This document shows, piece after piece, positions 1,053 through 27,735 of a DNA stretch of 64,000 nucleotides. The translations under genes and the position numbers were made by a program. Origin of the DNA: an uncultured virus (IMG/VR IMGVR_UViG_3300032092_000020) (lineage: Duplodnaviria; Heunggongvirae; Uroviricota; Caudoviricetes); IMG/VR virus record IMGVR_UViG_3300032092_000020. The stretch is one strand, 5' to 3'. The stretch's first letter is position 1. Each line of letters starts with the position of its first letter. The notes beneath the pieces were generated by a model. It was not told where the DNA came from. It did not search any database and was given only the letters and a program-made list of their open reading frames with translations.

Positions 1053-1188
1053 AACTCACGTTCACGCACTTACCCTCCCGCTGCCATCTCACCCCGCGCC
1101 ACGCCGCTCCCGTCCTAGTTGACACCTCGCCCCGCATGGCATAGATTCATTCCTGTCAGCAAGTCCACCGCTCCGAAAGGCTCCCGCC

Positions 1189-1464
1189 ATGTCGCTCCCC
1201 ACGCCGCTACAGATTCGCAAGCACGACGTGACAACCGATGGCGTCACCTACACCGTGTCCACCCTCCTGGCCGCCGACCTCCGCACCGTCACTGAGGTCA
1301 TCGTGTTCGCTCCCGACGGGTCACAGTATGACTTTGGGACCGATGCCACCGCCGCGATCCTCGCCGCCGACATGGGTGCCGACGCTCTCGCGGAGTACGC
1401 CGAGTACGTGTTCCGCGGCTGGGGAAACCTGCCCACGGTCAACGGCCTGATCGCCCTCTCCTGA
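1189..1464 (+). CDS. Hypothetical protein
   Basis: GAAAGG RBS after promoter 1119. Confidence 0.75.
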   Translation: MSLPTPLQIRKHDVTTDGVTYTVSTLLAADLRTVTEVIVFAPDGSQYDFGTDATAAILAADMGADALAEYAEYVFRGWGNLPTVNGLIALS

Positions 1465-1474
1465 CCCTCTCCCG

Positions 1475-1506
1475 ACTACGCCCCGCCCCCTCCGGCGGGG
1501 CGTAGT
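1475..1506 (+). terminator. Hairpin ACTACGCCCCGCC/GGCGGGGCGTAGT; related copies near 792-820, 2490-2515, 7885-7902
   Basis: 13-bp stem right after a stop codon. Confidence 0.65.
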
Positions 1507-1529
1507 TGTGTCTGCCACGACTCTGCCGA

Positions 1530-1660
1530 CCCTGCACCCTGCACCCTGAGCCCTGCACGGCGCTGCACTCTGCGTTGCACGGCGCTGCACTCTGCGTTGC
1601 ACGGCGCTGCACTCTGCGTTGCACCCTGAGCCCTGCACCCTGCACGGCGCTGCACCCTGC
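1530..1660. repeat. Microsatellite of CCCTGCA and CTGCACTCTGCGTTGCACGGCG units upstream of box 1669
   Basis: Directly visible. Confidence 0.9.
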
Positions 1661-1812
1661 GACCCGCGAACTCACGTTCATGCACTGCCCCACTCGCGGC
1701 GATACCGGCGCTGCCGACGCTCCCGCCCCGCGCTAGTTGACACCTCGCCCCGCACCTGTCATAGTCATGTCATCGGGCCGCACCCGCCGCCCCTGACAGC
1801 CGGAGGATCCCC

Positions 1813-2160
1813 ATGACGCTCACCGCCACCGCCGCTCACCGCGTCACCCGCGACGGTGCCCTGGCATCGGCGCGACGCTTCCACGATTCGTGGGCGTTCG
1901 TGACCACGACGTCCACCGCCCACCGTCCGGTGACGTACCGCGTGATCGGGAGCGACGGTAACGGCGGAGCGTACGCCCTGTCCGGTGAGACGAACCTAGT
2001 TGTGTGGGTGACCCTGACCGGCCACTCGCGCCGCGACGGTCGCGTGTCGGCGCGTGTCCACTACCCCCACGACACTGGCGATGCCGCCGGTACCCTCGCG
2101 TTCGACGCGTCGGATTCCCTGCCCGCCGCCCTTTGGGCCGAGCACTTCCCCACGGCCTGA
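1813..2160 (+). CDS. Hypothetical protein
   Basis: GGAGG RBS after promoter 1737. Confidence 0.7.
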   Translation: MTLTATAAHRVTRDGALASARRFHDSWAFVTTTSTAHRPVTYRVIGSDGNGGAYALSGETNLVVWVTLTGHSRRDGRVSARVHYPHDTGDAAGTLAFDASDSLPAALWAEHFPTA

Positions 2161-2192
2161 CCACCTACCCCCACGACGTTAGGACACCTGCC

Positions 2193-2477
2193 ATGACCGC
2201 CACCGCCCCCACTGTCGCCGCGTGGGAGATCCGCTACTGCCAAGCGTGCGAACGTCCCGCCCTCGCCTACGTCTCTCACCGCGACGGCGCGGACGACTAC
2301 GCCGGAGTGTGCCCCGCGTGTGATCGGGAGTACGCCGAACTATGCCCGTGCTGCCAGGATGGAACGGCCTACCCCGAACTAGACCGCCCCTACTGCCCGC
2401 CGTGTGCCGACTACAATGACGATGTGGCGCGCGAGGCTTACATCGCCTACCGCGCGGAGATCGCCGCGCGCTACTAG
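2193..2477 (+). CDS. Cys-rich hypothetical protein, paralog of 9789-10043
   Basis: Multiple CxxC; shares DGTAYPELDR. Confidence 0.75.
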   Translation: MTATAPTVAAWEIRYCQACERPALAYVSHRDGADDYAGVCPACDREYAELCPCCQDGTAYPELDRPYCPPCADYNDDVAREAYIAYRAEIAARY

Positions 2478-2658
2478 CCGCCCCCTCGCCCGCCCCGCCC
2501 CCTCCGGCGGGGCGCGTGAGCGTCACCGCCCGAACTCACGTTCACGCACCTCTCACCCTCGCGCCACCTGCCGCCCCTGCCGCCCCCGCTTGACACCTGC
2601 CAGGATCGGAGTAATGTCATCCCTGTCAGCACCTCCCGCCTCACCCTTTGGAGTCCAC

Positions 2659-2868
2659 ATGACCCGCACCCCGCTCACCACTACTGCCGCACAGTCGGCA
2701 GGGATGACCCTCACGATTCTCCGGACGGATGCTCACGGTGAGACATTCCGGCTCACGGGCAGGGTTGAGATTGCCGACGGTTACGGCATCCTGAGAGTCG
2801 CCCCCGGCACCCTCTCGGAGTACAGCGTGACCCTCGGAGGTGTCCACACGCCGTTTCCTCACATGTAA
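2659..2868 (+). CDS. Hypothetical protein
   Basis: GGAG RBS after promoter 2590. Confidence 0.65.
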   Translation: MTRTPLTTTAAQSAGMTLTILRTDAHGETFRLTGRVEIADGYGILRVAPGTLSEYSVTLGGVHTPFPHM

Positions 2869-2953
2869 GCCCCACGCGCCGTTTGACACCGCTCCCGATC
2901 GGAGTAATGTCATCCCTGTCAGCAACCCCCGCCCGATGGAAGGATCACCCGCC

Positions 2954-3145
2954 ATGCCTGGTCACCCCGCCCCCACGCCGAACCGCGTGGATCCCCTCGC
3001 GTTCGTCGTTGCCGCCCTTGCGATTGCCGCGTTCATCGTGGGATTCCTGTTCATTACGTTCCTCCCGCTCAACCCGATCGGCGCCGTTCTGATTACCGGC
3101 GGTTGTGTCCTCATTCTCACCGCCGGAGTCCTCGCCGCATCCTGA
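2954..3145 (+). CDS. Small membrane protein (two hydrophobic segments)
   Basis: GAAGGA RBS; LAFVVAALAIAAFIVGFLFITF and AVLITGGCVLILTAGVLAA. Confidence 0.7.
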   Translation: MPGHPAPTPNRVDPLAFVVAALAIAAFIVGFLFITFLPLNPIGAVLITGGCVLILTAGVLAAS

Positions 3146-3184
3146 CCCCTCACCCGCCCGCACAACGTCCCGAAAGGACACGCC

Positions 3185-3367
3185 ATGCTCACCGCTCCCG
3201 CTCCCGCCCGCGTCACCCCGCCGCCCGCCCCTGGCATCCGGTGGACGCCGACGTTCACCGCGTCGCCCCGCACCTACGCCCCTGGCACGTTCGGCCTGAC
3301 CGATGCCGAGCGCGTCGCCTACCTCGCGCACCTCCGGCGCAAGGTCCTGGCAGGGGGTGAGGCATGA
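3185..3367 (+). CDS. Hypothetical protein sharing a segment with 10094-10462
   Basis: PGIRWTP..T..PRTYAPGTF. Confidence 0.7.
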   Translation: MLTAPAPARVTPPPAPGIRWTPTFTASPRTYAPGTFGLTDAERVAYLAHLRRKVLAGGEA

Positions 3368-3550
3368 TGCCCTGACACCTACGCCGTCGGCCCCCCGCGT
3401 CCTTCCCTGGCGCGGGGTTCCGTCGCCCTCACCCCGAACTCACGTTCACGCACCGGCATCCCTGGCGCGCGGCTGCCGCGTTTGACACCCCGCTAGATCG
3501 GAGTAATGTCATCCCTGTCAGCAAGCCACGCCTCACCCCTTGGAGTCATC

Positions 3551-3829
3551 ATGGACTACACCGCGACCCCCGACTACACCGCGATCACGGTGGCCGCCCT
3601 CTACGTTATGCGCGAGCGTGGCGCGGTCAAGGTCGGCGCAAAGACTTGCCTGGATGACGGTGGCAAGTGGCGCCGCGCGTATGACCTGACCCCCGAGCAC
3701 GACGACCTGGCGATGACCTGCCTCGCGCGGTCGCTGTTCCCGTCGGACGGTTCCACTGAGGTTTGGTTTCTCGGTGCCGACGGCGAATACATGAACGAGG
3801 ACGGCGCGTGGCCGGAGGTGGACGAATGA
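3551..3829 (+). CDS. Hypothetical protein
   Basis: RBS after promoter 3482. Confidence 0.7.
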   Translation: MDYTATPDYTAITVAALYVMRERGAVKVGAKTCLDDGGKWRRAYDLTPEHDDLAMTCLARSLFPSDGSTEVWFLGADGEYMNEDGAWPEVDE

Positions 3830-4047
3830 CGCGCCACTCGGACGCGCTCACCGCGTTCCTGGATCCCGTCCACCGCGCGCACTTCGACGGCGTGGCGGGA
3901 GTGGTCACGTTCACCGCCCACGGGTCCGGCCACGATGTCGTGCCCGTCACCGCCCCGGTGGACCGCGCGACGCTCACCCGTATGGTGCGCGCTCACGACT
4001 TCGACTGCTGCGACTGGCCGACGCGCCTGGACTACTTGCGCGGGTGA
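3826..4047 (+). CDS. Hypothetical protein
   Basis: ATGA overlap with the preceding gene. Confidence 0.65.
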   Translation: MTRHSDALTAFLDPVHRAHFDGVAGVVTFTAHGSGHDVVPVTAPVDRATLTRMVRAHDFDCCDWPTRLDYLRG

Positions 4048-4170
4048 TCGCCCCGAACTCACGTTCACGCACCCCCACGCCGCGCCGCGTTCTCGCCCTG
4101 TTTGACACCTGCCAGGATCGGAGTAATGTTGTCCCTGTCAGCAAGTCACCCCGCACCTTGGAGGCACCCG

Positions 4171-4347
4171 ATGGACACAATGACCCGCACGATCGCGGCA
4201 CAGGACCGCGAGGTGCGCCACGACGCTTGTGGCACCTGGATCCCGTGGGCAGGCTTCGCGTTTCACCACGTGGACGGCGGACGCTACGGCCTCGCCGCGT
4301 GCCCCACGTGCTCCGTGGTCACATCGTTTCGGGTGGCCGGACGATGA
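4171..4347 (+). CDS. Small Zn-finger-like protein
   Basis: HDAC...CPTC; GGAGG RBS. Confidence 0.65.
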   Translation: MDTMTRTIAAQDREVRHDACGTWIPWAGFAFHHVDGGRYGLAACPTCSVVTSFRVAGR

Positions 4348-4616
4348 CCGCCCTCGCGTGGTCGCGCACCGGCAAGGGCCGGTATGGCGAGATCGACGAC
4401 CGCGACGTGACTCACCCTCGCCACCTGTCGTTCTGGATCACCGCCGACGCCCGCACGCGACAGTGGACGATCAACGCCGCGATCGGCGGGCGCACCGTCG
4501 GCCCGCTGGATCTTGTCCCCTCGTACTCGGAGGGACGCGCGACCGTGGACCGCGCCGCCGTGATCGTGAGCCGCCAACTCGCCCAGGAGTACCGCGACGC
4601 ACTCGGGCAGGGGTGA
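4344..4616 (+). CDS. Hypothetical protein
   Basis: ATGA overlap. Confidence 0.65.
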   Translation: MTALAWSRTGKGRYGEIDDRDVTHPRHLSFWITADARTRQWTINAAIGGRTVGPLDLVPSYSEGRATVDRAAVIVSRQLAQEYRDALGQG

Positions 4617-4741
4617 GGGGAGAGGACTAACTCACGTTCACGCACCTCTCGCCCTGCCGCCCCGATCGCCCCGTTTGACACGCGACCTAATCGGAGTAAC
4701 GTGGTCCTTGTCAGCAACCGCCCCCACCCTTGGAGGATCCC

Positions 4742-5014
4742 ATGTCCCGCATCGTTGTCGCCACGGTCACCGCGGAGCGTCAGCACGCCTACACGGTCAC
4801 CCTCTCGGACGGCTACACGTTCCTCTCGTCCTACTCGCCCCTCGCCCACGAGACTCTCGCGTTCCCGATCGTTGCGGGTGCCATCGACTACCGTGAGGTC
4901 GCGTCACGCTTCGGCGCGGTCCCCGACCACGCGGGAGTGGTGGACGACATTCTCGCCCGCCGCAACCTTCGACCCGCCCGCGGCGTTGAGGTCCCCGCCC
5001 CTCAGGGCTGGTGA
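4742..5014 (+). CDS. Hypothetical protein
   Basis: GGAGG RBS after promoter 4675. Confidence 0.7.
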   Translation: MSRIVVATVTAERQHAYTVTLSDGYTFLSSYSPLAHETLAFPIVAGAIDYREVASRFGAVPDHAGVVDDILARRNLRPARGVEVPAPQGW

Positions 5015-5016
5015 CG

Positions 5017-6399
5017 TCAGCGGCGGCGCATGGGCTTGGGGATGCTGCCACTCGCGGCACTCTTGGCCCTTGCGCCGCCCGCACTGAATCCCGCGGGCTG
5101 CTTCACGACTAGGGCCGAGAGCGCGTGGACTAGCGCGTCGATCCTGTCGGGAGACTTCTTCGACGCCCCTGGTTCCCACGAGAGCATTTGACTCTCCAAC
5201 TCAGGCATCACGTTGAGGTGGTGGATCCGGCGCTGCTCATACGCGAGGACGACAGGCTCCGCGCGGAGCACCTTCCCGACGTGAGCGCGTACGTCGATCA
5301 CGCGGATGCTCGGGTCGATCCCGTTGATCGCACCGCGCACGAGAGCGCCGCCCTGGTTCACTTCGGCAACCACTGGGGCCTGGTACTTGTTCGCCATAGC
5401 GACCACGCGACGCGCCCACGTCCCCGGCGACCCGTGGACGCTCGCATCTTCGATGACGTATCCCGACCGGCGGTAGAGTTTCCTCTCGCGCGTCGCCCCG
5501 ACCACGACGATGCCGCACTCATCCCGCGGGTTCTCGGACACGCTCGGGTCCACCCCGACCACGACGGTCAGCCCGGACGGTAACTCACGTACACGCATCT
5601 CGTCGATCAGGTCCTCTTGCCAGAGCGCGCCCTCAACCTTGTCCAGCATCTCGCCGTAGAGTTCCTGGCGCGCAAGGCTTGTCCCCTCGTACAGCCCCAT
5701 GATAACGTCGAGGTACGCCGCCGACAGGTTGCCCACGTTGTCCATCGTTGTGCCTCGGATGAACAGCACGCGCTCCGGATGCTGCTCGGCCTCGGCCAAC
5801 AGCGCTTTGATCGCGGGGATACGCTTCGGGGTCGTCATGGCAAAGATTTGCGGGTGCGCGCCTAGTCGCGTGGCGATCCGGACGTTCTCCCACGCCGTAA
5901 GGCCGGAGTCGTCAGGGATCCACTTCCACGCCGCCCACTCGTCACATGACGCCCAGTGGAACTGAGGACCACGCAACTGATTAGGCTCGTCGGAGGAAAA
6001 CGCGATAGCGGTCGAACCGTTCGGCCAGGTGAGCAACCGCTTCGACGGCTCCCACAGCGGTCGCTCACTTGGAGGACTCACCGCCATGATGCCGGACTCG
6101 CCCTGAATCATCACGTCGCGCACGTCGGCGCTTGTTCGTGCGACGAACGCGCCGCGGGATCCTGGCATCCGCTTGGCCTTTTCACGCACCCACTCACTCG
6201 CGGTGCGCGTCTTCCCGACACCACGCCCGCCCAGGTACGCGCACACTGACCACGTATCGTCGTCCAGTGGTTTGCGCTGCTCAGGTCGTCCCCAGAATCC
6301 CCAGTCCCAGAGCAAAGCCTCCTCGTCCAGTCCGGCTAGCGCGGCTTCGCGCTCGTCGGGTGAGAGTTCGGCAACGATCTGCGCGAGACTAAGGGCCAT
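5017..6399 (-). CDS. terL: Terminase large subunit (Terminase_6-like ATPase plus RNase H-fold nuclease)
   Basis: Walker A GGRGVGKTRT, LRGPQFHWASCDE, RQELYGE, VVGVDP, SPDRIDA. Confidence 0.9.
   Translation of the reverse strand: MALSLAQIVAELSPDEREAALAGLDEEALLWDWGFWGRPEQRKPLDDDTWSVCAYLGGRGVGKTRTASEWVREKAKRMPGSRGAFVARTSADVRDVMIQGESGIMAVSPPSERPLWEPSKRLLTWPNGSTAIAFSSDEPNQLRGPQFHWASCDEWAAWKWIPDDSGLTAWENVRIATRLGAHPQIFAMTTPKRIPAIKALLAEAEQHPERVLFIRGTTMDNVGNLSAAYLDVIMGLYEGTSLARQELYGEMLDKVEGALWQEDLIDEMRVRELPSGLTVVVGVDPSVSENPRDECGIVVVGATRERKLYRRSGYVIEDASVHGSPGTWARRVVAMANKYQAPVVAEVNQGGALVRGAINGIDPSIRVIDVRAHVGKVLRAEPVVLAYEQRRIHHLNVMPELESQMLSWEPGASKKSPDRIDALVHALSALVVKQPAGFSAGGARAKSAASGSIPKPMRRR
5582..5598 (+). 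promoter_or_regulatory. Near-copy of the 17-bp box inside terL
   Basis: AACTCACGTACACGCAT, one mismatch to AACTCACGTTCACGCAY. Confidence 0.6.
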
Positions 6400-6540
6400 C
6401 TGATCATCCTATCATCCGATCAACTCACGTTCACGCACCGCCCTCCACGCCTGCCCGCCTCCCCCACTTGACACCTGCCGTGAAAGGTGTAGTGTTGTCC
6501 TTGTCAGCAAGACCCAACAACTCAACAAGGGAGCACGACT

Positions 6541-6744
6541 ATGAACGTCGTCGCATACATCGCTGATGCCGACTGGCATCACCCGGCCTGCCTCGAAGAG
6601 GCATACGCCGACCGCGACATCGACATCCACGCGGAAGGTGAAACCGACCGTGAGGGCAACGAGTTCTACCCGGTCCCGTCCTGGGAATCTCAGCCCTACA
6701 CTTGCGGCACTTGCCGCGGTGAGGGACCCGGATGGAGCCACTGA
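6541..6744 (+). CDS. Small acidic protein with CGTC
   Basis: GGGAG RBS after promoter 6468; hairpin at about 6751-6788 follows. Confidence 0.7.
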   Translation: MNVVAYIADADWHHPACLEEAYADRDIDIHAEGETDREGNEFYPVPSWESQPYTCGTCRGEGPGWSH

Positions 6745-6910
6745 CACCTCGACCCCGGACTCTCCCGAAAGGCGGGAGGGCCGGGGTCGCGGAAGATACA
6801 CCCTGAACTCACGTTCACGCACTCCCCTCATTCTCGCGCTTGACAGTCCCCCCGATCACCGGTAATGTCGTTCCTGTCAGCAAGTCCCCCGCCAGGAAGG
6901 AACCGGCATC

Positions 6911-7072
6911 ATGGCTCTCCAAACCGCAAGGCTCGTCGCCATCGGGCTCGCCCTGATCGAACAGGAAGGCCGCGCCGTTGTTGAGGCGGCCTACGGCACC
7001 ACGGACCCCGAGTGGGTCGGCAAGTACGCGCTCCGCTACGGCGACGCGAACGCCGACGGCACTCTCAACTAG
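6911..7072 (+). CDS. Small hypothetical protein (53 aa, below ORF track cutoff)
   Basis: GGAAGGA RBS after promoter 6840; MALQTARLVAIG...GTLN. Confidence 0.6.
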   Translation: MALQTARLVAIGLALIEQEGRAVVEAAYGTTDPEWVGKYALRYGDANADGTLN

Positions 7073-7087
7073 ACGGAAGGAACGACC

Positions 7088-7306
7088 ATGACCAGCACCG
7101 ACACGCGCTACTGCGAGGCCGAGACTCACCCCGCGGTGTTCTACCTCAGCAACGGCGACCCCGGCTACCCCGCCGAATACTGCGAGGCAGAGGCAGAGCC
7201 AGGGTCGGACTACTGCGCGCTCCACCAGGACGACGGGTTCCCCTACGACGACCGCGACGCCTATGACGAGGCACGCGACCTCGCCCTAGACCGAGAGGAC
7301 TACTAA
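7088..7306 (+). CDS. Small acidic Cys-containing protein
   Basis: GGAAGGA RBS. Confidence 0.7.
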   Translation: MTSTDTRYCEAETHPAVFYLSNGDPGYPAEYCEAEAEPGSDYCALHQDDGFPYDDRDAYDEARDLALDREDY

Positions 7307-7518
7307 TGGCACGCGACCCCCGCGACCTGCGCGACCTTGCCGAGGAACTACTCAACCTCGCGCAAGACACGCTCAACGACGCATCGTTCGCTATCGCTCT
7401 CGGAGACGCGGCCCGATCCATCGAACTCATCAACGAGGCGCGTCAGTTCCGCGAGACGGCCGAACTCACGTTCACGCACTACGAACGACTCACCGCTCCG
7501 CTCTCCGACCTCGCTTGA
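7306..7518 (+). CDS. Hypothetical protein; its 3' end reads through a 17-bp box
   Basis: TAATG coupling; box translated as ELTFTH. Confidence 0.6.
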   Translation: MARDPRDLRDLAEELLNLAQDTLNDASFAIALGDAARSIELINEARQFRETAELTFTHYERLTAPLSDLA

Positions 7519-7580
7519 CACCCTCCCGAATCTGCGAGAGGATCGTCCTGTCAGCAAGTCACCACAACGAAAGGCACACC

Positions 7581-7853
7581 GTGATCACCGTCAGGAGCAC
7601 CGAAGCCGGGAACGCCGAGTACAACGGCACCCCCGCCGAACTACACGCGCTGTTCGCTCGCACCACGACGAACACCTACGGCTCCACCAGCACCAACGTC
7701 GTCGGCCACTCCCGCGAGGTTCAGGTGTTCATCACCGAGGACGGCACGACCGGCATCACCGCCACCGACGCCCGCGGCGATCGTGTGACGCTGTACCGCA
7801 CGATCATGCGCCACGACGACCTCGTGTGGCTAGTGGTCACCCCCGCCGCCTAA
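7581..7853 (+). CDS. Hypothetical protein
   Basis: GAAAGG RBS, GTG start. Confidence 0.7.
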   Translation: MITVRSTEAGNAEYNGTPAELHALFARTTTNTYGSTSTNVVGHSREVQVFITEDGTTGITATDARGDRVTLYRTIMRHDDLVWLVVTPAA

Positions 7854-8030
7854 CACCCCCTAGACCCTGCGCCCCGTCGGTGACCTCCCCGGCGGGGCGT
7901 AGCCAACTCTTCCACCCAACTCACGTTCACGCACCTCTCCCGTCTCGTCCCTGCGCCCGCTTGACACACTCCCCCGACCTGCTATGGTTAGTCCTGTCAG
8001 CAAGAAACGCACCGCCCACCAGGAGGAACC

Positions 8031-8162
8031 ATGAACACCAAGTCCCGCGTCACCGCGGTACAGGAGCGTCGTCGCTCCGGCGCGGCAGGCAAGCACGGCG
8101 ACCGCCGTACCAAGCGCCTGCGCACCCGCGCGGCCCGCAAGGCGCAAGCCTTGCGGGACTGA
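8031..8162 (+). CDS. Small Arg-rich basic protein (43 aa)
   Basis: AGGAGG RBS; MNTKSRVTAVQERRRSGAAGKHGDRRTKRLRTR. Confidence 0.65.
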   Translation: MNTKSRVTAVQERRRSGAAGKHGDRRTKRLRTRAARKAQALRD

Positions 8163-8183
8163 TCACTCAACCAAGGAGAACTC

Positions 8184-8354
8184 ATGTCGAACCTCATGCT
8201 CGCCCCCAAGACCCGCGCGGCTACCGCGTACGGTCAGGGTCACGGTGGCCGCCGTTGTACCTGCTGCGACTTCCCCGGCTCCGAGTCCAAGCGCGTGCGC
8301 CGCACCATCCGCCGCATCGAAAAGGCCGCATGGAAGAAGGAGGTCGGCGCATGA
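8184..8354 (+). CDS. Small basic Cys-containing protein (56 aa)
   Basis: AAGGAG RBS; CCTCC motif. Confidence 0.6.
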   Translation: MSNLMLAPKTRAATAYGQGHGGRRCTCCDFPGSESKRVRRTIRRIEKAAWKKEVGA

Positions 8355-8611
8355 GCACCCTAGACGACATCCGCGACTCCGCGCTGGTCGAGGCGGCGCG
8401 TGACCTGATCGGCGACCCCGACACCAACCTGGAATACGAGCGCGCCCTGGTCGAGGTGATCATGGTGTCGAACGGCCTGGATACCAACGTGTATCGCAAC
8501 GACGTGCGCGACTGGCTAGGGCTCCGCTCCGAGCGATCCTGTCGCGCGTGTGGCGAGCGTTACGACCTGGACGACGGCATCGACTGGGAGGCGTGTCCGT
8601 CGCACGCCTGA
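8351..8611 (+). CDS. Hypothetical protein with C-terminal Zn ribbon
   Basis: ATGA overlap; CRAC...CPSH. Confidence 0.65.
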   Translation: MSTLDDIRDSALVEAARDLIGDPDTNLEYERALVEVIMVSNGLDTNVYRNDVRDWLGLRSERSCRACGERYDLDDGIDWEACPSHA

Positions 8612-8711
8612 CGCCCGAACTCACGTTCACGCACCGATCACCCCGAACCACTTGACAACCCTCGCCCTGTCGCGTAGGTTGTACCCATCAACCAAATCAC
8701 CAGGAGGAACC

Positions 8712-8975
8712 ATGAGCAGCAGCGACACCCGCACCGTCACCCGCACGGCGTTCCACACCATCGGAAGCGATGGAACCCTCACCAAGTGGAGCGGCGAGAC
8801 GATCGGCTACCACGGCGTCGAGGCCGCGATCAACTCCGCGGTCGAGGCTCTCCGCTCGCATGGCGCGCGGCACGAGGTCATCGCGATCAACGGCCACATC
8901 GACCCGCGTGGCGGCACGTTCATCGAACTTACAGGCGGCGGCATGGTAGCCACGATCACCGAGGAGGCGTGGTGA
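8712..8975 (+). CDS. Hypothetical protein
   Basis: AGGAGG RBS. Confidence 0.7.
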   Translation: MSSSDTRTVTRTAFHTIGSDGTLTKWSGETIGYHGVEAAINSAVEALRSHGARHEVIAINGHIDPRGGTFIELTGGGMVATITEEAW

Positions 8976-9187
8976 GCAACGTCCGGCTGCTCTGCCACTG
9001 TGGAGACGTCGCCCGCAACGACGGCTCAGACTATGAGGGCGTCTGCTCTCAGTGGCCGCTCTGCGAGACGCGGGAGGGTCCAACTCACGTTCACGCACCC
9101 TTCCCGAGCGTCACCCCCGACCACGCTTGACACCTACCGCGACTCCGCGTAGGTTGTACCCATCAGCCACACCAACCAGGAGGAATC

Positions 9188-9388
9188 ATGCTCAACTCAT
9201 TCACCGTCGCCCGTATCCACGGCGCATGGACTATCCTTGACCCGAGCGGGTTCCCCGTTCGCACCTACGGCGACCGAGGCGCTGCCCAGCGCGACGCGAC
9301 CCGACGGAATGACGGCCTGCTCCGCGAGGAGCGTGCTCAGGAACGCGCCGAGGCTCAGGCTCTCGCCGCACAACGGAAGGCATGGTGA
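9188..9388 (+). CDS. Hypothetical protein
   Basis: AGGAGG RBS. Confidence 0.7.
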   Translation: MLNSFTVARIHGAWTILDPSGFPVRTYGDRGAAQRDATRRNDGLLREERAQERAEAQALAAQRKAW

Positions 9389-9669
9389 GCACCGTGAGCG
9401 AGTCCCCCGAGGCTGTCGAGACTGTCGAGGCTCCCGAGAGTGAGCACCCTCTCGCGTCCCTCATTCCGCCGCTGGTCCTGGCCGACCGATGCTGTTTCTC
9501 AGGCTGTTCGGCTCAGGCGTTTGCGGCTGTCCTGGTCACCGCCGACAATGAGCACCCGCTACTGTTCTGCGGCCACCACGCTGCGCGCGTGCTCCCGACG
9601 ATCACCGACCCGTTCGCGGTGCGCGACGATCGACACCTGATCAACGAAACGAGCGAGTCCTCCGCGTGA
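9382..9669 (+). CDS. Small Cys/His protein (actinobacterial DRC..C..QA..LLFCGHH type)
   Basis: ADRCC..C..QA...LLFCGHH motif; start uncertain. Confidence 0.65.
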   Translation: MVSTVSESPEAVETVEAPESEHPLASLIPPLVLADRCCFSGCSAQAFAAVLVTADNEHPLLFCGHHAARVLPTITDPFAVRDDRHLINETSESSA

Positions 9670-9788
9670 GCGCGGAGCGCTAACTCACGTTCACGCATTC
9701 CCCCGAGTCTCACCGCGCGGTGCTTGACACCCTGCCGCATCTAGCGTAGATTCATCTCTGTCAGCAAGGAATCAGCCAAGGAGGAGCC

Positions 9789-10043
9789 ATGCTCAGCAAG
9801 AAGTGGACCGTACGCTACTGCGAGGGTCACGGCTCGCCCCAAGTTGTCTTCACGGACGACACCTACTCGGGACTCTGTGCCGAGTGTGAGCGCGAGTACG
9901 GCGAACTATGCCGAGGATGTGAGGATGGAACGGCCTACCCTGAACTAGATCGACGCTACTGCGCGACGTGCGCCGAGGGTGCCGCGTTCTGGGAAGGACT
10001 AGGCCGCGAGGCTTATCTCCGAGAGGAGGGGGCCCGCGCATAA
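9789..10043 (+). CDS. Cys-rich hypothetical protein, paralog of 2193-2477
   Basis: DGTAYPELDRRYC. Confidence 0.75.
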   Translation: MLSKKWTVRYCEGHGSPQVVFTDDTYSGLCAECEREYGELCRGCEDGTAYPELDRRYCATCAEGAAFWEGLGREAYLREEGARA

Positions 10044-10093
10044 TCGCCGCCCGGACAACCGACCCTATCAGATCAACTAAACGAGGAGGAACC

Positions 10094-10976: not shown

Positions 10977-10988
10977 GACTTCGACGGG

Positions 10989-18242: not shown

Positions 18243-18340
18243 CTCACGTTCACGCACCTGACCTGTTCGACCTCACTTGACATCCTGCGCCAAGAGAGTA
18301 GTGTTACCTCTGTCAGCAACCCCCGACCGAAAGGACGACC

Positions 18341-18766
18341 ATGCCCACGATCCAGCGAGACGAACTGATCGCCGCCGTGCGCGAGTTCGCAGAGGCAGAT
18401 CCCAACCATGTCTACACCAAGACGGACCTCAACCCATCTTCCGAGGACTACATCATGTCCTTCGAGGATGTCGGCGGATGTCTCTACTCCGACCTCGGCG
18501 TCGAGCAGTGTATCGTCGGACGCGCCCTGTCCAAGTGCGGCGTGATGATGAGCGTGCTCCGCTCTGCCGACCTGGATTCCTGGGGAAGCGTCGCGTCGGT
18601 TGTCACCCCCGAGGACACCAACGACGACGAGCCGCGCATCGTGGTCGAGGGCTTGACCGAGGACGATGTCCAGTGGCTGATGATCGTTCAGGATAGCCAG
18701 GACAAGGGGCTGCCTTGGGCCAAGGCCGTGTACCGCGCCGACATCGCCAAGGGGGTGCTCGCATGA
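18341..18766 (+). CDS. Hypothetical protein
   Basis: CLY...CIVG...Q..QD.G.PW. Confidence 0.75.
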   Translation: MPTIQRDELIAAVREFAEADPNHVYTKTDLNPSSEDYIMSFEDVGGCLYSDLGVEQCIVGRALSKCGVMMSVLRSADLDSWGSVASVVTPEDTNDDEPRIVVEGLTEDDVQWLMIVQDSQDKGLPWAKAVYRADIAKGVLA

Positions 18767-19119
18767 GTGCCCAAGAACTCGCCGACGGGTGGGCCGAGGT
18801 CGAGGCCGAACTCACCGAGGCTAAGGGCATCGCCTGGGACACCTGCCACAAGATCTACATCCTCATGGACGAGGAGCAGATGGCGCAGATGCGTGAGTAC
18901 GAGTACGACCCGCTCATCCCCATCTCGCACCTGGACGCAGGCAACCCCGATCGGTCGGACGCCTCCCTCCAACGCGCGGCGCTCGCGCAACTCCACGAGT
19001 GGTACGACGCCTCGTGCGGGCTCCGCTTCATCAACTCCGTTCGTACGAACAAGGAGGACCCCAACGAGGGGTTCACCAGCCTCATCCGGCAGTTCGCCTC
19101 CGACGAGGAGGATGACTGA
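18763..19119 (+). CDS. Acidic hypothetical protein
   Basis: WDTCHKIYILMD...WY..SCGLRFI. Confidence 0.75.
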   Translation: MSAQELADGWAEVEAELTEAKGIAWDTCHKIYILMDEEQMAQMREYEYDPLIPISHLDAGNPDRSDASLQRAALAQLHEWYDASCGLRFINSVRTNKEDPNEGFTSLIRQFASDEEDD

Positions 19120-19349
19120 TGGACGACATTTACGTCCTCACCGCGATCGTCGAGGCAGGGGTGAGAGCCGATGAGTTGACCGAAACCGACATCTGCGGAA
19201 TGCTCGGCACGACGCCGGTTCGCGCGTTCATCGACGACCTCCTCTGCCGCCTCCAAGACTACGGGTTCAGCCACGAACTCCACACGTCGTCTGGTGCCTG
19301 GGCGACGCTGTTGGAGGACGCGCTGGACGACATCGAACTACGCGACTAA
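19119..19349 (+). CDS. Small acidic protein
   Basis: TGATG coupling; stop overlaps box. Confidence 0.65.
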   Translation: MDDIYVLTAIVEAGVRADELTETDICGMLGTTPVRAFIDDLLCRLQDYGFSHELHTSSGAWATLLEDALDDIELRD

Positions 19350-19439
19350 CTCACGTTCACGCACCTGGCTTGACAGCCCCAAGCATCAGGGGTAGCGTTA
19401 CACCTGTCAGCAAGAACCAACCGACCGAAGGAGAAGATC

Positions 19440-19793
19440 ATGGCTCAGACTTTCCGTCACACCGACGACATCATCACCGAACTCGCCGGAACCTACGGCA
19501 TCCAGGACCCCGACAACCCCATGGTCGACCTCGACTCTGTGGAGTTCCTGGACCTCGACGCCGCGCGCGGACTCATCGAGGCGCTGAGTGAGATCGGTAC
19601 CGACGCCGAACTCTGCCCCGAAGATGAGTTCGAGAACTACGCGCGCGAACTCGCGGAGTCGGTCGGAGCGATCAGCGACACGGCCTCGTGGCCCAACAAC
19701 CACATCGACTGGAAGGCCGCAGCAGAGAGCCTGCGCCAAGACTACTCGTGGGTCGTCATCAACGACGTCGAGTACCTGTACCGTGAGTGCTGA
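19440..19793 (+). CDS. Acidic protein resembling the ArdA-like antirestriction C-terminal region
   Basis: F..YA.ELAE..G...WP..HIDW..AA..L..DY; functional call tentative. Confidence 0.55.
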   Translation: MAQTFRHTDDIITELAGTYGIQDPDNPMVDLDSVEFLDLDAARGLIEALSEIGTDAELCPEDEFENYARELAESVGAISDTASWPNNHIDWKAAAESLRQDYSWVVINDVEYLYREC

Positions 19794-19977: not shown

Positions 19978-20078
19978 TCGAACTCACGTTCACGCACCCC
20001 CTCCCCTCCCCGTTTGACAGATTCGCGGAACTCGCATAGTGTCTGTCATGTCAGCAACCACCAAGCGAAGGGATCATC

Positions 20079-20810: not shown

Positions 20811-21049
20811 GCGCCTTCCGCGCGGTGCGCTTTCACGCCGAGGAGTGGGTCGACGATTATGGTGTCGAGATCGACCCGAAGGGTCCGGCCATCTGGACAC
20901 CCTCCGATCTCGACGCGTTGCTCGAAGGGTACGGCGACCCTGCCGACGCCTTCCGCTACGAGCGGTGGTTCGACTACGACCCCGCCTGTCCGGACTGGAT
21001 CAAAGAGCACGACGGCCCGTTCTGGATCGAGTTCGCCTTCGACAACTAA
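20807..21049 (+). CDS. Small acidic protein
   Basis: ATGA overlap; W..H.GPF; stop overlaps box. Confidence 0.7.
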   Translation: MSAFRAVRFHAEEWVDDYGVEIDPKGPAIWTPSDLDALLEGYGDPADAFRYERWFDYDPACPDWIKEHDGPFWIEFAFDN

Positions 21050-21134
21050 CTCACGTTCACGCACCCCGCTTGACAACGCAGGGGTGAGAGCGTAGACTCA
21101 TCCCGTCAGCCACCATCAACCGAAAGGACACACC

Positions 21135-23177: not shown

Positions 23178-23286
23178 CCGTACTCTCCGAACTCACGTTC
23201 ACGCACCCGGCCAGGGGTGATTTGACAAACGCAACTGGTCGCGGTAGGTTCATTCAGTCAGCACGCAACTTCACGAAAGGAGCATC

Positions 23287-24096: not shown

Positions 24097-25258
24097 CGCC
24101 TACGCCTTCGCCCCCGGAAGCGGGAAGCACGGGTTGTACTACCGCCTGCCCGACCGCACGTGCTCGCTGCGCTCGCTGGACTTCGCGATCATCAGACACA
24201 CGCCGACCACGCTGGACGACGCTGAGGTCGCGCCGCGCCGATGGGTGATCATCGACCAAGTTCCTGATCGCCTGGTCGACATCCTTGAGAAGGGTGGGAG
24301 CCTCGGGCGAGAGGATCGCTACGCGCTCGAGCAGATCAAGAAGATCGCAGACAAAACCCCGAGCGGTCCGCTTGACGCCGCGCCCCTCACCCCGTACACC
24401 ACCATCTGGAAGGAGAAAGATCCCGTGACTCCAGTCGCAGTTGACCCGGTTCGACCCGTCGAAACGTGGGTCCCCGGAAAGTACATCCGCCCGAACGGTG
24501 AGGTCTATTACTCACGCAAGTTCAACGGCTCGGATGACGTCGAGTCGCTGCGCGAAGCGGTGACCGCTGGTCTGGTTCCGTACCTGTACGGCGACCCGGG
24601 CACCGGCAAGACCGCGCTCATCGAGGCCGCGTTCGGCGAGCGGCTCGAGACGCTGGTCGGCGATGCAGACACCGACTCCGCGGCCTTCGTTGGATCCTGG
24701 GTGCAGGTCGGCGATCACTACGAGTGGGTCGACGGCCCGCTTCTTCGTGCGATGAAGAACGGTCACGTGATGTTCATCGACGAGGTCGGGCTGATCGACG
24801 CACGGGTGATCTCGATCATCAACCCGCTGCTCGACGGGCGAGGGGTGATCGAGGTTCAGCAGAACCCGACTATGCCGCCGGTCTTCGCTGCTGAGGGATT
24901 CGCGCTGGTGTTCGCCGGTAACCCGAACGCACTCGGCGTACGCATGTCCGAGGCTCTCATCTCGCGACTCTCGTTCGCGCTCAAGGTCACGACCGACTAC
25001 GACATGCTCGAGCAGATCGGTGTGCGCGGGTGGCTTGTGGATGTCGCTGACCAGATCGTAGGACTAAGGACGAGGGGTGAGATCGCCTGGGCTCCGCAGA
25101 CACGCGAGTTGCTTGCTTGTACGAAGATCGAAGAGGTCTTCGGCAAGCAGTTCGCTGCCAACGCGCTGATCGGTATGGCTCCCTCGCACTCGGTTGCGCA
25201 GGTGACGCTCGCGCTCCAGGCTGGCGCAGGACTTGACGGCGAGGTGTTGTCTCTGTGA
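24089..25258 (+). CDS. MoxR/CbbQ/CobS-like AAA+ ATPase
   Basis: Walker A GDPGTGKT, DGPLLRAM, Walker B MFIDE, SEALISR; TTG start after GGAGG (start uncertain). Confidence 0.85.
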   Translation: MPSAYAFAPGSGKHGLYYRLPDRTCSLRSLDFAIIRHTPTTLDDAEVAPRRWVIIDQVPDRLVDILEKGGSLGREDRYALEQIKKIADKTPSGPLDAAPLTPYTTIWKEKDPVTPVAVDPVRPVETWVPGKYIRPNGEVYYSRKFNGSDDVESLREAVTAGLVPYLYGDPGTGKTALIEAAFGERLETLVGDADTDSAAFVGSWVQVGDHYEWVDGPLLRAMKNGHVMFIDEVGLIDARVISIINPLLDGRGVIEVQQNPTMPPVFAAEGFALVFAGNPNALGVRMSEALISRLSFALKVTTDYDMLEQIGVRGWLVDVADQIVGLRTRGEIAWAPQTRELLACTKIEEVFGKQFAANALIGMAPSHSVAQVTLALQAGAGLDGEVLSL

Positions 25259-26958
25259 CAATCAACCACTTGGTCCACGAGAAGGTAGCACAGTGGTGGA
25301 AGCCGCAGCGAGGATGGGCGAGCGCTGCTCAGATCCTCACGTACACACTCAGCGCTGGTCCGTGCCCTGGTGGACGGGTGGGATTCGTTGAGAACCCCTC
25401 AGGTGGGCTCGCCTGTTGTGATACGGACCACATGTCGATCTTCATCAACGGGCACGCGCTCGAGGGTAAGGATGCGCTGATCCCCGTGTTCGCGGTCGCC
25501 ACGGACATCAATCCAAAGCAAGGTCTTGTGGACTTCGCGCCATCGGTCATCGCTGCCTTCTGGCACGAGGTCGGACACCTGCTCACCCCGAGCACCGTCC
25601 TCATGGCAACCATTGATCATCCGAAGAGCCAGACAGCCAACACCGTCCTGAACGAGGTCGTCGCGGATTCGGCAGGGGTTGCGGAGATGCAGTCACGCGG
25701 AGTCCACGAAGACCAGGGGGTCGCGTTCCGCGGGACGACGAACGAGACGTCGGAGCGGATGCTGACGCTGCTTGCTCACGTGACTAACCTCGAGACCATC
25801 ACGGAGGAAGGGGTGGACAACGCTGAGTATGTGCTCACGTTCGCGACCCAGCACTTCTACCGTCTCGGGATCGAGACGGAGTCCGCGCTCGCTGCTCGAG
25901 CGATCCTCGGGGATGAGCACACGGAAGAACTTCGGGGCATTATCGCGGAGGCGGACATCCTCCCTGGCAGGCCGTTCGAGCGGCAAGGCGAGATCTTCCA
26001 GCGGTTGATGGAACGCTGGTGCGCGATCCTCGATCAACTCGATCCGGAAGCCGCAGAGATGGAGCGGCTACGGAAAGCCGTCGCGAAGGCGACCATCGAG
26101 CAGATGGGTGCCGAGGAAGCAGCGAAGGCCGAAGCGGTGGAGCAGGCGTTCGAGGAAGTTGCGCTCGAAGCATCGATGGACTACGCGATCTCCCTGAAAC
26201 GAGATCCACCCGCGGAAGAGCGACCTCCGACGGGTGGGGACTGGGCGCTTCGGACGAGGTTGCGCGAGGCGCTTGTCCATCTGAACTATCCGGACATCGC
26301 TCGAACCGAGGGGTGGGAGACTGCCCCACCCGGAAGGCTGTCGGGCGCTCGTGCCATGCAGCGCGACGCGCTCAACGAGATCGACCCGTTCCTCGGAGCA
26401 TCGGTCTCCCCGTTCCGACGGGTGGACCGGCGGGCTGACCCGATGGTCCCGATCTCGGTAGGGGTGATCATCGATCAGTCCGGATCCATGACGGCGCTGT
26501 CGGAGACGACGACTTCGCTGGGGTGGGCCCTGGCCGGAGCGGTACGCGACGTGGACGGTAAGGTCGCGGTCGCCTCCATGTCCTCGACAGGTCGGCTCAT
26601 CGAAGATTCTTACTCACACAAGGATCAGGTGGTCAACCACTACCCGGCCGACGGGTCGTTCGAGAACTTCTACGAGGCGTGGGAAGCGGTCACCACCGCG
26701 ATCGATCTCGAGAACGCGCCGGGGGTCAGACTCCTGATCGTCGCGACGGACTGGGAACTCGTCCGCGAGTCGCAGTCCATCTACACCGAGATGGCGCTGA
26801 CCAGATTCCGCCACAAGGGTGGGATCGTGATGAGCATCCATGAGGCGTACAACAACCACTTCGATGCACACATCGACGTATCTGTCAAGCCTGACGCAGC
26901 AGTGCAAGGCGTGATCGACATCTACCAGTCTATTCGTACGAGAAAGGAACACAGATGA
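25255..26958 (+). CDS. VWA-domain partner protein with N-terminal HEXXH
   Basis: HEVGH; MIDAS DQSGS; coupled to the AAA gene. Confidence 0.8.
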   Translation: MTINHLVHEKVAQWWKPQRGWASAAQILTYTLSAGPCPGGRVGFVENPSGGLACCDTDHMSIFINGHALEGKDALIPVFAVATDINPKQGLVDFAPSVIAAFWHEVGHLLTPSTVLMATIDHPKSQTANTVLNEVVADSAGVAEMQSRGVHEDQGVAFRGTTNETSERMLTLLAHVTNLETITEEGVDNAEYVLTFATQHFYRLGIETESALAARAILGDEHTEELRGIIAEADILPGRPFERQGEIFQRLMERWCAILDQLDPEAAEMERLRKAVAKATIEQMGAEEAAKAEAVEQAFEEVALEASMDYAISLKRDPPAEERPPTGGDWALRTRLREALVHLNYPDIARTEGWETAPPGRLSGARAMQRDALNEIDPFLGASVSPFRRVDRRADPMVPISVGVIIDQSGSMTALSETTTSLGWALAGAVRDVDGKVAVASMSSTGRLIEDSYSHKDQVVNHYPADGSFENFYEAWEAVTTAIDLENAPGVRLLIVATDWELVRESQSIYTEMALTRFRHKGGIVMSIHEAYNNHFDAHIDVSVKPDAAVQGVIDIYQSIRTRKEHR

Positions 26959-27713
26959 ACCAGACCATGAGGAACACGATCGTCACCCTCGCACGCAGCG
27001 GTGAGTCGAACGCGCGGATCCAAAAGCACACCGGAGTCGGGCGGATGACCATCTGCAACATCCTCCTCCAGGAGTACGAGGCCGGGACGCTCCCCGTGCC
27101 GAACCACGCGCTCACTCGAGAAGCGGTCGCCCTACGCAAGCGGGTCCGGGCGTACGCCGATGAGCACAAGCGGTTCTACGTCCAGGACGCCTGCGACGCG
27201 CTCGAGATCTCCGCTCCAACGCTCGACCGGCACCTGCGGTCGCTCGGGATGACGGATCGGACGCTCCCCAAGTTGCCGACGGTGACGTGGCGAAAGTACA
27301 CCGATGACGAGATGCTGGCAGCGGTTCAGGAGGCGTGGGCGATCCTTGAGACCAGGGGTGCGAGGTACCTATCGGTCGATCCCTACACCGCGCTCCGGAA
27401 AAGCAATCCCCAATGGCCCGGGGCAAACGCGCTCGTATCGCGGTTCGGGTCCTGGTCGGATGCCATGGAACTGGCTGGGATCCCGGTCAGGCAGGTAAGC
27501 CGACGGAACCGGTGGAGCCAGGAGGACATCGAGGACACCATGATCGAGTTCGCCGCGACGGGTGAGTCATCGATGGCCGCCTACGACCGGTGGCGGAGGG
27601 AGAAGGGCGGGGACCTTCCGGGTACCGGTGCGATCCTGAGTCTCGCTGGATCTTGGCGAGCGGTGATCAATTGGGCTGAGCACGAGGCAGCGGTGAAGGG
27701 GCTGCTGGTCTAA
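26955..27713 (+). CDS. HTH plus homing-endonuclease-associated-repeat protein, putative DNA-binding
   Basis: HTH-like segments; two repeats like Y..Y....P....L..FGSW..A; stop overlaps the last box. Confidence 0.65.
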   Translation: MNQTMRNTIVTLARSGESNARIQKHTGVGRMTICNILLQEYEAGTLPVPNHALTREAVALRKRVRAYADEHKRFYVQDACDALEISAPTLDRHLRSLGMTDRTLPKLPTVTWRKYTDDEMLAAVQEAWAILETRGARYLSVDPYTALRKSNPQWPGANALVSRFGSWSDAMELAGIPVRQVSRRNRWSQEDIEDTMIEFAATGESSMAAYDRWRREKGGDLPGTGAILSLAGSWRAVINWAEHEAAVKGLLV

Positions 27714-27735
27714 CTCACGTTCACGCACTACCAGG

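Follow-up and report, generated by a model that had tools for sequence, protein, structure and literature searches.

A co-oriented 20-bp box at helical-turn distances upstream of some 28 early promoters in an uncultured actinophage

The 64,000-nucleotide stretch analyzed here (IMG/VR record IMGVR_UViG_3300032092_000020, hereafter "the window") is the early region of an actinophage. Its left part holds an array of small early genes on the + strand (1053–27728), which comprises 30 copies of one asymmetric word, termed the box in the following, about 31 promoters of the sigma-A type and 54 called + strand genes. The box precedes 28 of these promoters without ever overlapping them, and its distance to the -35 hexamer falls into groups about 11 bp apart. 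In our view, the box represents an operator read by a single sequence-specific protein that is coupled to the polymerase on the promoter, an interpretation to which we assign a probability of roughly one half.

Results

The window contains 28 exact matches to the 17-mer AACTCACGTTCACGCAY, of which 27 lie on the + strand and one on the – strand, with 0.00 matches expected from 100 shuffles. A scan of the window allowing up to three mismatches yielded 30 copies (0.36 expected by chance); the two non-exact ones, located at 1669 (C>T, box position 13) and 5582 (T>A, position 10), carry one mismatch each. All 30 copies lie between 1053 and 27728, and 29 of them are found on the + strand (binomial p = 5.8e-8). 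The marked orientation bias reported in the initial annotation was hence reproduced, while its count of 29 copies, 28 of them in one orientation, has to be raised by one in both respects. With the same tolerance of three mismatches no box was found in the right-hand 36 kb of the window (27729–64000), from which it had indeed been described as absent. The 10.5 kb past the right end of the window, available from a virus record (G001) that is 100% identical to window 11026–64000 and extends rightward by this length, contain no box either. Other dispersed motifs were likewise not found in the 36 kb to the right of the array.

Alignment of the 30 copies extended the conserved word to 20 bp, consisting of a C, a T or G (K), the 17-mer and a final pyrimidine (Y). 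In the flanks, the C is present in 25 of 30 copies, the second position is T or G in 26 of 30 and never A, and the pyrimidine occurs in all 30; two exact boxes, at 9682 and 12158, end in T. The 17 core positions show no variation in 28 of the 30 copies, resulting in a motif of about 35 bits with sharp edges on both sides. This box, CKAACTCACGTTCACGCACY, is asymmetric and lacks a dyad, but holds two units of a direct repeat, TCACG(T/C), at 6-bp spacing. Since the spacers, the genes and the promoter spacer sequences around the boxes are unrelated among the copies while the box is invariant, we conclude that the word itself is under selection. No paper containing the string CTCACGTTCACGCA was found in the literature searched.

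Downstream of 27 + strand boxes, a -35 hexamer (TTGACA in 26 cases, TTGACG in one) follows after 5–51 bp and, after a further 16–17 bp, a -10-like hexamer, which reads TAnnnT in 23 cases and is weaker in four. The inverted copy at 16288 sits 19 bp 5' of a + strand promoter (-35 at 16324) and brings the number of boxes with a promoter to 28, exactly as many as had been annotated in front of TTGACA-type promoters. On the + strand, this promoter pattern has 27 matches in the array (0.2 expected) and 10 in the right-hand region (0.5 expected), in agreement with the earlier observation that similar promoters persist to the right without the box. A box is present at 28 of about 31 promoters in the array versus 0 of 10 in the right-hand region. 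The three box-less array promoters (2883, 13120 and 21820) begin 15, 18 and 2 nt past the preceding stop codon and, being so near to it, leave no room for a box. Not in a single case does a box overlap a -35 or -10 hexamer.

For the 27 + strand box-promoter pairs, we computed the distance d from the end of the box to the -35 hexamer. The values obtained (5, 5, 15, 16, three times 17, three times 19, 20, 25, 26, four times 28, four times 29, 30, 35, 39, 40, 49 and 51) form groups at about 5, 16–20, 25–30, 39–40 and 49–51 bp, i.e., about 11 bp apart. A Rayleigh analysis gave R = 0.675 at a best period of 11.2 bp. In control sets of 20000 resamples with a jitter of ±5.5 bp, this value was reached by 0 of 20000 for periods of 9.5–12 bp and by a fraction of 0.0002 for periods of 6–16 bp. 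Taking the -10 hexamer as anchor instead led to R = 0.694 and a period of 11.1 bp, and the 19 bp of the inverted copy also fall inside one of the spacing clusters. Spacers within one length class are not copies of each other, and the phased spacing is not inherited because spacers of the same length are unrelated in sequence. With the -35 hexamer set at -35 to -30, the box centers are located at about -49, -59 to -64, -69 to -74, -79, -83/-84 and -93 to -95. This spacing pattern is a new result of the present analysis and would fit a position on the face of the helix at which regulators touching RNA polymerase are expected to sit.

The composition of the single units follows a recurrent scheme. 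At seven sites (13552, 15074, 16887, 18241, 19348, 21048 and 27712), the preceding stop codon is completed by the initial bases of the box. These overlaps were judged on gene calls based on GC content at third codon positions (GC3), a crude heuristic whose calls are consistent with the ribosome-binding sites, and the independent calls recovered the very seven sites listed before as the minimum. The same calls yielded the 54 + strand genes of the array (median 93 aa), mostly orphans and present as 1–4 genes per box interval, as expected from the annotated 1–4 small unknown open reading frames (ORFs) per unit. Strong hairpins (dG ≤ -18 kcal/mol within 75 nt 5' of the box) precede 9 of the 29 + strand boxes at 12–38 nt, which bears out the statement that cassettes often end in a hairpin; the order of elements in these units is invariably hairpin, box, promoter. 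About 6 nt past the -10 hexamer, the sequence TGTCAGC appears in 21 array promoters, corresponding to the sequence element previously noticed near +1; next in line are a purine-rich ribosome site and the start codon. Among these 21 promoters, 20 have a box.

Together with the same promoter pattern, TGTCAGCA is also found in unrelated phage records (G002, G003 and the 322-kb G004). We rejected it as part of the box system on these grounds and treat it as a generic start context, which may represent a widespread optimized early-promoter start region. In G004, 12 near-identical TTGACA-N17-TAnnnT promoters carry TGTCAGCA about 6 nt downstream. A separate observation concerns the 27 spacers between box and -35 hexamer, which are C-rich and G-poor on the + strand (360 C versus 145 G in 692 nt, with a whole-array C/G ratio of 1.14); this composition might reflect a Rho-loading signal or the avoidance of structure.

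According to Pfam, the proteins of the window include a T4-type large terminase (TerL; 5017–6399, – strand), which identifies the window as part of a tailed phage and is embedded in the array on the opposite strand. The right half encodes a primase/helicase, an SNF2 helicase, a PD-(D/E)XK nuclease, a PNKP, a dCMP deaminase and lysis enzymes. The closest terminases are those of the Actinomycetia phage DSL-LC01 (62% identity), followed by large Microbacterium and Gordonia phages, the GC content amounts to 58–68%, and the phage probably infects high-GC Gram-positive bacteria. A metagenome contig of 110,111 bp has identical box spacing and hence stems from the same phage; this contig and the completeness of G001, estimated at 58%, set the genome size at about 110 kb, of which our gene-content scans covered 74.5 kb (the window plus 10.5 kb).

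Seven of 53 array proteins scored above the Pfam cut-off (terminase, DUF7455, DUF932, DUF1281_C, pyrimidine-dimer glycosylase, AAA_5 and HTH_23), and about a dozen had PHROG matches, mostly of unknown function. The array had been suggested to carry anti-host and anti-defense genes; a weak PHROG "anti-restriction" match (E = 5e-6) is the lone defense-related hint. Paralogy between the cassettes is near zero. A single clear pair touches the array, linking 17857–18075 to 37963–38220 in the right-hand region (52% identity, PHROG 8676, function unknown). Neither an RNA polymerase gene nor an immunity-repressor family, an integrase or a partition (ParAB) gene was detected in the 74.5 kb examined.

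By inference only, from its position and architecture, the protein P0001 (26955–27713, + strand, 252 aa) is a candidate binder of the box. Its gene, the last one of the array, closes the longest of the box-headed operons (4.5 kb, starting with box 23190) and has its stop codon inside the terminal box. Pfam revealed HTH_23 (27.2 bits, above cut-off) and a weak HTH_5, i.e., two N-terminal helix-turn-helix (HTH) units. Further segments resemble a homing-endonuclease-associated repeat (Pfam E = 6e-4, below cut-off), and Atlas look-alikes combining HTH or sigma-r4 domains with HNH_repeat (scores 0.90–0.91) serve as a lead only; a nuclease domain was not detected in P0001. In a single-sequence AlphaFold2 (AF2) model of poor overall quality, helices over residues 1–100 reached predicted local distance difference test (pLDDT) values of 60–86, and comparison with the PDB returned matches at E ≥ 0.48 only.

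Searches for relatives and for further boxes covered several collections. Segments of 8 kb and 20 kb from the window had no megablast match among 50,697 phage records. With the TerL protein, one relative fragment was found (L254; 14 kb, 63% identical), which has no box, and for DUF932 the best match merely reached 28%. No RNA run was found to contain the phage. A scan of IMG/VR for the box returned 6 records with a single occurrence each, and a metagenome scan returned at least 126 stretches with one occurrence each, apart from the 110,111-bp contig of the same phage. In bacterial and archaeal genomes, the word, searched as a 16-mer, is present in at least 120 stretches. Of 80 loci retrieved from these genomes, 29 were inspected; 26 of them belong to two groups whose flanks are conserved across genera, and three are singletons. 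Judging from their conserved flanks, we read these 26 loci as coding-sequence coincidences. A perfect copy in an intergenic position was not recognized among the loci inspected in bacterial genomes, and accordingly nothing points to a host regulon built on exact sites, with degenerate host sites still possible. Known host sites compared by eye with the box (CRP/GlxR, LexA, PhoP/PHO box, GlnR, MtrA, DnaA box and the -35/-10 elements of ECF-sigma factors), did not fit.

Following the array from left to right, with boxes on the + strand and exact unless stated otherwise, the first box (1053–1069; d = 49) precedes a promoter with its -35 at 1119–1124 and its -10 at 1142–1147. Box 1669–1685, with its C>T mismatch, has d = 51, a -35 at 1737–1742 and a weak -10 (CATAGT). 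A hairpin (dG -28) ends 12 nt 5' of box 2533–2549 (d = 40; -35 at 2590–2595), after which boxes 3437–3453 (d = 28; -35 at 3482–3487), 4056–4072 (d = 29; -35 at 4102–4107) and 4629–4645 (d = 29; -35 at 4675–4680) lead up to the terminase gene. Within this gene and antisense to it lies the orphan box 5582–5598, which carries the T>A mismatch and has no promoter after it. Beyond the terminase gene, box 6422–6438 (d = 29; -35 at 6468–6473) is followed by box 6806–6822 (d = 17; -35 at 6840–6845), 18 nt 5' of which a hairpin (dG -30) ends. Box 7463–7479 is an off-phase outlier (d = 35; -35 at 7515–7520) and lies within the 3' end of ORF 7306–7518. A hairpin (dG -29) ends 15 nt 5' of box 7918–7934 (d = 26; -35 at 7961–7966), and the 5' side of box 8618–8634 (d = 17; -35 at 8652–8657) abuts a replacement found in variant strains (8345–8617).

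Boxes 9082–9098 (d = 28; -35 at 9127–9132) and 9682–9698, one of the two ending in T (d = 25; -35 at 9724–9729), come next, together with box 10515–10531 (d = 30; -35 at 10562–10567), for which a hairpin (dG -18) ends 18 nt 5', and box 11045–11061 (d = 28; -35 at 11090–11095), which has a hairpin and a T-run on its 5' side. The only TTGACG hexamer (11732–11737) belongs to box 11696–11712 (d = 19), the second box ending in T is 12158–12174 (d = 39; -35 at 12214–12219), and box 12681–12697 (d = 29; -35 at 12727–12732) again has a hairpin (dG -29) 5' of it. Boxes 13552–13568 (d = 20; -35 at 13589–13594) and 15074–15090 (d = 28; -35 at 15119–15124) both lie on the upstream stop codon and enclose box 14299–14315 (d = 19; -35 at 14335–14340). 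The sole inverted box (16288–16304, – strand) comes after two hairpins and 19 bp 5' of its + strand promoter (-35 at 16324–16329). Further right, the upstream stop codon is overlapped by boxes 16887–16903 (on a TGA; d = 17; -35 at 16921–16926), 18241–18257 (d = 19; -35 at 18277–18282), 19348–19364 (d = 5; -35 at 19370–19375) and 21048–21064 (d = 5; -35 at 21070–21075), with box 19981–19997 (d = 16; -35 at 20014–20019) between the latter two. Box 23190–23206 (d = 15; -35 at 23222–23227) heads a four-gene operon ending in the HTH protein. The terminal orphan box (27712–27728) lies on the stop codon of this HTH gene and has no promoter; beyond it come a hairpin (dG -23) and genes running convergently on the – strand.

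The surroundings of the array showed further features. At the left end, GCCTCTT is repeated about 33 times within 1–232, a 14/31-bp unit, CAGCAGGACAGCAG, fills 832–1052 with about 14 copies and ends exactly at the first box, and a 22-bp unit occurs three times at 1554–1624, shortly 5' of the second box. In mid-array, the terminase gene is the lone gene on the opposite strand; likewise, the related fragment L254 has opposite-strand small genes and repeated promoter-like words beside its terminase. At 10966–11026, the beginning of the 110,111-bp contig (10966) and the end of G001 (11026), two records of the phage that were assembled independently, are at most 60 bp apart, next to a hairpin and a run of nine T; either a physical end of the genome or a break in assembly may lie here. 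To the right of the array, about 430 bp of AT-rich intergenic DNA (28560–28990) with divergent genes on either side separate a – strand gene pair (27736–28553) from + strand genes starting at 28997 and contain a 49-nt imperfect inverted repeat (28624–28672/28730–28778, 78% complementary). An origin, a control region or a small RNA could be located here. Beyond the right end of the window (L380, i.e., G001 1–12000), gene direction flips about 2 kb out; ThyX is encoded on the window's + strand, and a WhiB-domain protein (206 aa), DNA polymerase I and a DUF5047 protein on the opposite one.

Discussion

A single DNA-binding protein recognizing the box would tie about 28 sigma-A-like early promoters into one regulon. 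Positioned upstream of the -35 hexamer at whole-helical-turn distances (centers at about -49, -61, -72, -84 and -94), this protein could act on the adjacent RNA polymerase in the manner of a class I regulator, and RNA synthesis of the boxed units would be expected to start at TGTCAGCAA and not at the bases just past the box. The regulator could be encoded by the phage, multi-modular and probably monomeric, and would shut the array once the early phase is over. As the main variant of this mechanism, the phage could have hijacked a host activator. We lean toward a phage-made shut-off factor because the near-consensus promoters should fire unaided on entry. Moreover, the asymmetric site would suit a monomer with several DNA-binding modules, an arrangement that has been solved for the cluster A repressor (PMC9283540). 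That one DNA-binding factor coordinates a regulon-sized set of promoters had been put forward in the initial annotation; the size of the set and the ~11-bp phasing fit this proposal. Observed are the motif, its distribution, its orientation bias and the phasing, while the binding of a protein, its identity, the regulatory sign and its contact with polymerase are what we infer.

Several points weigh against a promoter-coupled regulator. Two of the 30 boxes, namely 5582 within the terminase gene and 27712 where the array ends, are promoter-less, and both would be explained by a roadblock. With TTGACA in 26 of 27 cases, the promoters come close to the consensus and should not depend on an activator, and the 17 invariant positions exceed what typical operators constrain. 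In addition, the phasing is loose, with members at 19–20, 25–26 and 35 bp and a best period of 11.2 instead of 10.5 bp, and two spacers in a variant strain are longer by 5 and 2 bp. As to P0001, its link to the box is purely positional, its C-terminal half is poorly folded in the AF2 model (mean pLDDT 54), and no homologue was found among 5.8 billion proteins, itself aside, or by tblastn in the phage collection. Finally, a box-carrying relative was found neither by megablast nor in the IMG/VR, metagenome, TerL and DUF932 searches.

An explanation that we regard as rather unlikely, but which accounts for both promoter-less boxes, is a directional roadblock or insulator comparable to a stoperator. 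Here, the box-bound protein would halt polymerase arriving from the upstream cassette without contacting the downstream promoter, keeping each cassette separate and preventing rightward early transcription from running antisense into convergent genes. The asymmetric site, with 29 of 30 copies co-oriented with transcription, is consistent with such a role, as is its location in short intergenic gaps, right after stop codons or overlapping them (at the seven sites given above), and between the hairpin and the next promoter. The promoter-less boxes 5582 and 27712 sit just where + strand transcription would meet opposite-strand genes, and the sole inverted copy comes after two strong hairpins that would make a further barrier dispensable. 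An orientation that follows transcription and a function that is lost on reversal are published hallmarks of stoperators (PMC9283540). However, the pure form of this explanation does not predict the observed helical phasing with the -35 hexamer, promoter overlap of the kind known for the L5 operator is not seen at any box, and immunity-repressor, integrase and partition genes were not detected in the 74.5 kb examined. Likewise, the closest TerL relatives classified in the literature (GMA2) lack temperate features (PMC5559632). A roadblock and a promoter-coupled regulator would be compatible if one protein did both, by analogy with the L5 repressor acting at operators and stoperators.

Promoters of T7-type phage polymerases are near-invariant and oriented with the genes, and the box could in principle be a private promoter, i.e., a single-block promoter for a phage RNA polymerase or a phage sigma-like factor, giving each cassette a second, later promoter 5' of the host-type one. 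Near-invariance over 17–20 bp and strict co-orientation with the genes argue for this option. A possible factor is P0002 (38577–39200, + strand, 207 aa), whose sigma-70 likeness is weak (Pfam Sigma70_r2, E = 1.2e-3, below cut-off; PHROG sigma factor, E = 2.3e-5). We nevertheless consider a private promoter very unlikely, since in the 74.5 kb examined no RNA polymerase gene was found and no gene outside the early array is preceded by a box. Moreover, the box lacks -35/-10 blocks at sigma spacing, with nothing conserved 16–17 bp past its AAC, three of the 30 copies (16288, 5582 and 27712) would fire antisense or into a terminator, and an independent promoter leaves the helical phasing to the next promoter unexplained.

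The box could also act at the RNA level, where, lying at the 3' end of each unit and together with the C-rich, G-poor stretch after it, it would direct Rho-type termination, processing or protein binding. Boxes beginning at or just past the stop codon, the strict strand bias and the C-rich, G-poor composition of box and spacers are in line with this idea, which remains very improbable in our assessment. Rho loading sites are C-rich and G-poor, but do not need a fixed 17-mer. Besides, a strong hairpin precedes the box in at least 7–9 units, where much of the RNA would stop earlier, the inverted copy still stands next to a promoter, and the box has no associated fold or partner sequence. The phasing to the -35 hexamer also counts against an RNA signal, because it is a property of DNA geometry.

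Alternatively, the box could be a site of DNA transactions, i.e., a recombination or nick site or a shared patch of homology, with cassettes exchangeable like PeSLs (see below) or integron attC sites. The cassette genes are indeed unrelated orphans with only box and promoter in common, and P0001 carries the below-cut-off repeats of the homing-endonuclease type. In variant-strain contigs from two runs of different studies, 8345–8617, comprising one 86-aa gene, is swapped for 55 nt, and homology restarts exactly at the first base of box 8618; further replacements of gene size affect the array (8014–8336). The left edge of the 8345–8617 replacement is, however, away from any box, for which reason it does not represent a box-to-box event. 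One contig links box 13552 to promoter 6468 through 23 unrelated letters, but this 13570-to-6465 joint could just as well reflect cassette 6422 after divergence of its spacer at nearly constant length, with the box aligned to another copy; joints below 95% likeness carry an alignment warning. In either case, the spacer measures about 28 bp and is in phase. Variant joints with short sides (6624–12448, 24614–7678 and 9331–19552) and uncovered parts were excluded from consideration. The window yielded no recombinase, both HNH genes (34291 and 48944) fall outside the array, 20 bp are short for homologous exchange, and the promoter phasing is not predicted, all of which makes an exchange site highly improbable. 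Of the proposed reshuffling at box and promoter, one replacement edge at box 8618 stands, whereas the other edge lies elsewhere, the reordering is ambiguous and paralogy is near zero.

Least probable of all, and in our eyes extremely doubtful, is a strand-specific nick or site-specific exchange site recognized by a phage-encoded protein with homing-endonuclease modules, which would turn the array into an integron-like platform in a lytic phage and in which the phased promoter position would ensure expression of each inserted gene.

Returning to the promoter-coupled regulator, a single factor reading the word would govern, in this uncultured actinophage, about 28 promoters together with some 50 early genes that are orphans. 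To our knowledge, very little is known about temporal transcription control in lytic phages of Actinobacteria. The array furthermore represents a well-delimited catalogue of candidate host-takeover genes. In an applied context, the 20-bp word combined with a consensus promoter would be a compact orthogonal switch for high-GC hosts.

Comparison With Known Systems

With respect to geometry, the box resembles the binding sites of class I regulators such as CRP, which lie upstream of the -35 hexamer, function only at positions one helical turn apart and are centered at -61.5, -72.5, -82.5 and -92.5. The box centers at about -61, -72, -84 and -94 come close to these positions, and their helical-turn spacing (11.1–11.2 bp, R 0.68–0.69, 0/20000 controls) is of the kind expected for class I sites. 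A second analogue is the protein p4 of phi29, which, bound upstream, represses an early promoter by holding RNA polymerase. There is no sequence or protein relation to either system, and the array differs from both in having one type of site at about 28 near-consensus promoters. The conserved inverted repeats of phiC31 are a further analogue, for which a literature search gave nothing usable.

Stoperators and PeSLs had been named as analogues before, and both are fair comparisons in the sense of a similar mode of working, although the box belongs to neither family. Cluster A mycobacteriophages such as L5 and TipsytheTRex contain dispersed, near-invariant, asymmetric stoperators of 13 bp (PMC9283540; PMC5559632), which are read by a repressor monomer with two DNA-binding domains (PMC9283540). 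Both systems rely on 20–30 copies of one asymmetric word that is conserved within the genome, oriented with transcription and located in short intergenic gaps, and the 30 boxes (29 co-oriented, seven on stop codons) match this pattern. In sequence, however, CKAACTCACGTTCACGCACY departs from the 13-bp stoperator consensus of the GGTGGMTGTCAAG type. Cluster A phages are temperate, with a known immunity repressor and one site overlapping an early promoter, whereas the box is 20 bp long, confined to the early array, free of promoter overlap and phased upstream of about 28 promoters, and no lysogeny genes were detected in the 74.5 kb examined.

The repeat of Cluster O phages (Corndog) shares with the box a 17-bp word, a copy number of at least 30 (more than 30 in Cluster O), invariant positions, a mostly intergenic location and, as far as the 74.5 kb examined show for the present phage, the lack of lysogeny functions (PMC4351075). 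It is, however, a palindrome with 7-bp arms, has no orientation to transcription, is distributed genome-wide and is not tied to promoters (PMC4351075); the box has the direct TCACG repeat at 6-bp spacing in place of dyad symmetry. Start-associated sequences of cluster K are another dispersed actinophage word (PMC4351075).

In T4-type phages, PeSLs are early-promoter/stem-loop cassettes between early orphan genes and are proposed to serve as points of exchange (PMC4122927). As in the array, repeated modules of terminator and early promoter part small orphan genes in a plastic early region, and the composite of hairpin, box and promoter in 9 of 29 units (dG ≤ -18) together with the excess of promoters (27 versus 0.2 expected) agrees with such a design. 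A PeSL consists of promoter and hairpin themselves, while the array adds a separate invariant box at a variable, phased distance. With regard to exchange at module edges, one replacement ends at box 8618 with its other edge not at a module, and one joint is ambiguous. Moreover, PeSLs belong to T4-type myoviruses, whereas the TerL relatives of the present phage are actinophages (DSL-LC01, Microbacterium and Gordonia phages).

Comparable designs also occur closer to the phage itself. DSL-LC01 (L007, 1–20000) has about 25 promoters before small genes upstream of its terminase, in which GATTCTA...TAGAATC brackets TGTTATAAT, followed by TCAaCAA. With its 7-bp inverted repeat around an extended -10, the arrangement resembles a promoter that carries its own palindromic operator. 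Since this TerL relative has its own palindrome, private words on repeated early promoters recur in the lineage, and an unrelated high-GC phage record likewise has its own conserved stretch, abutting the -35 hexamer. The box system, known from one genome, is outside the cluster A, Cluster O and PeSL families by sequence or by defining features, and is distinguished by a separate, asymmetric 20-bp box that stands clear of the promoter at helical-turn distances.

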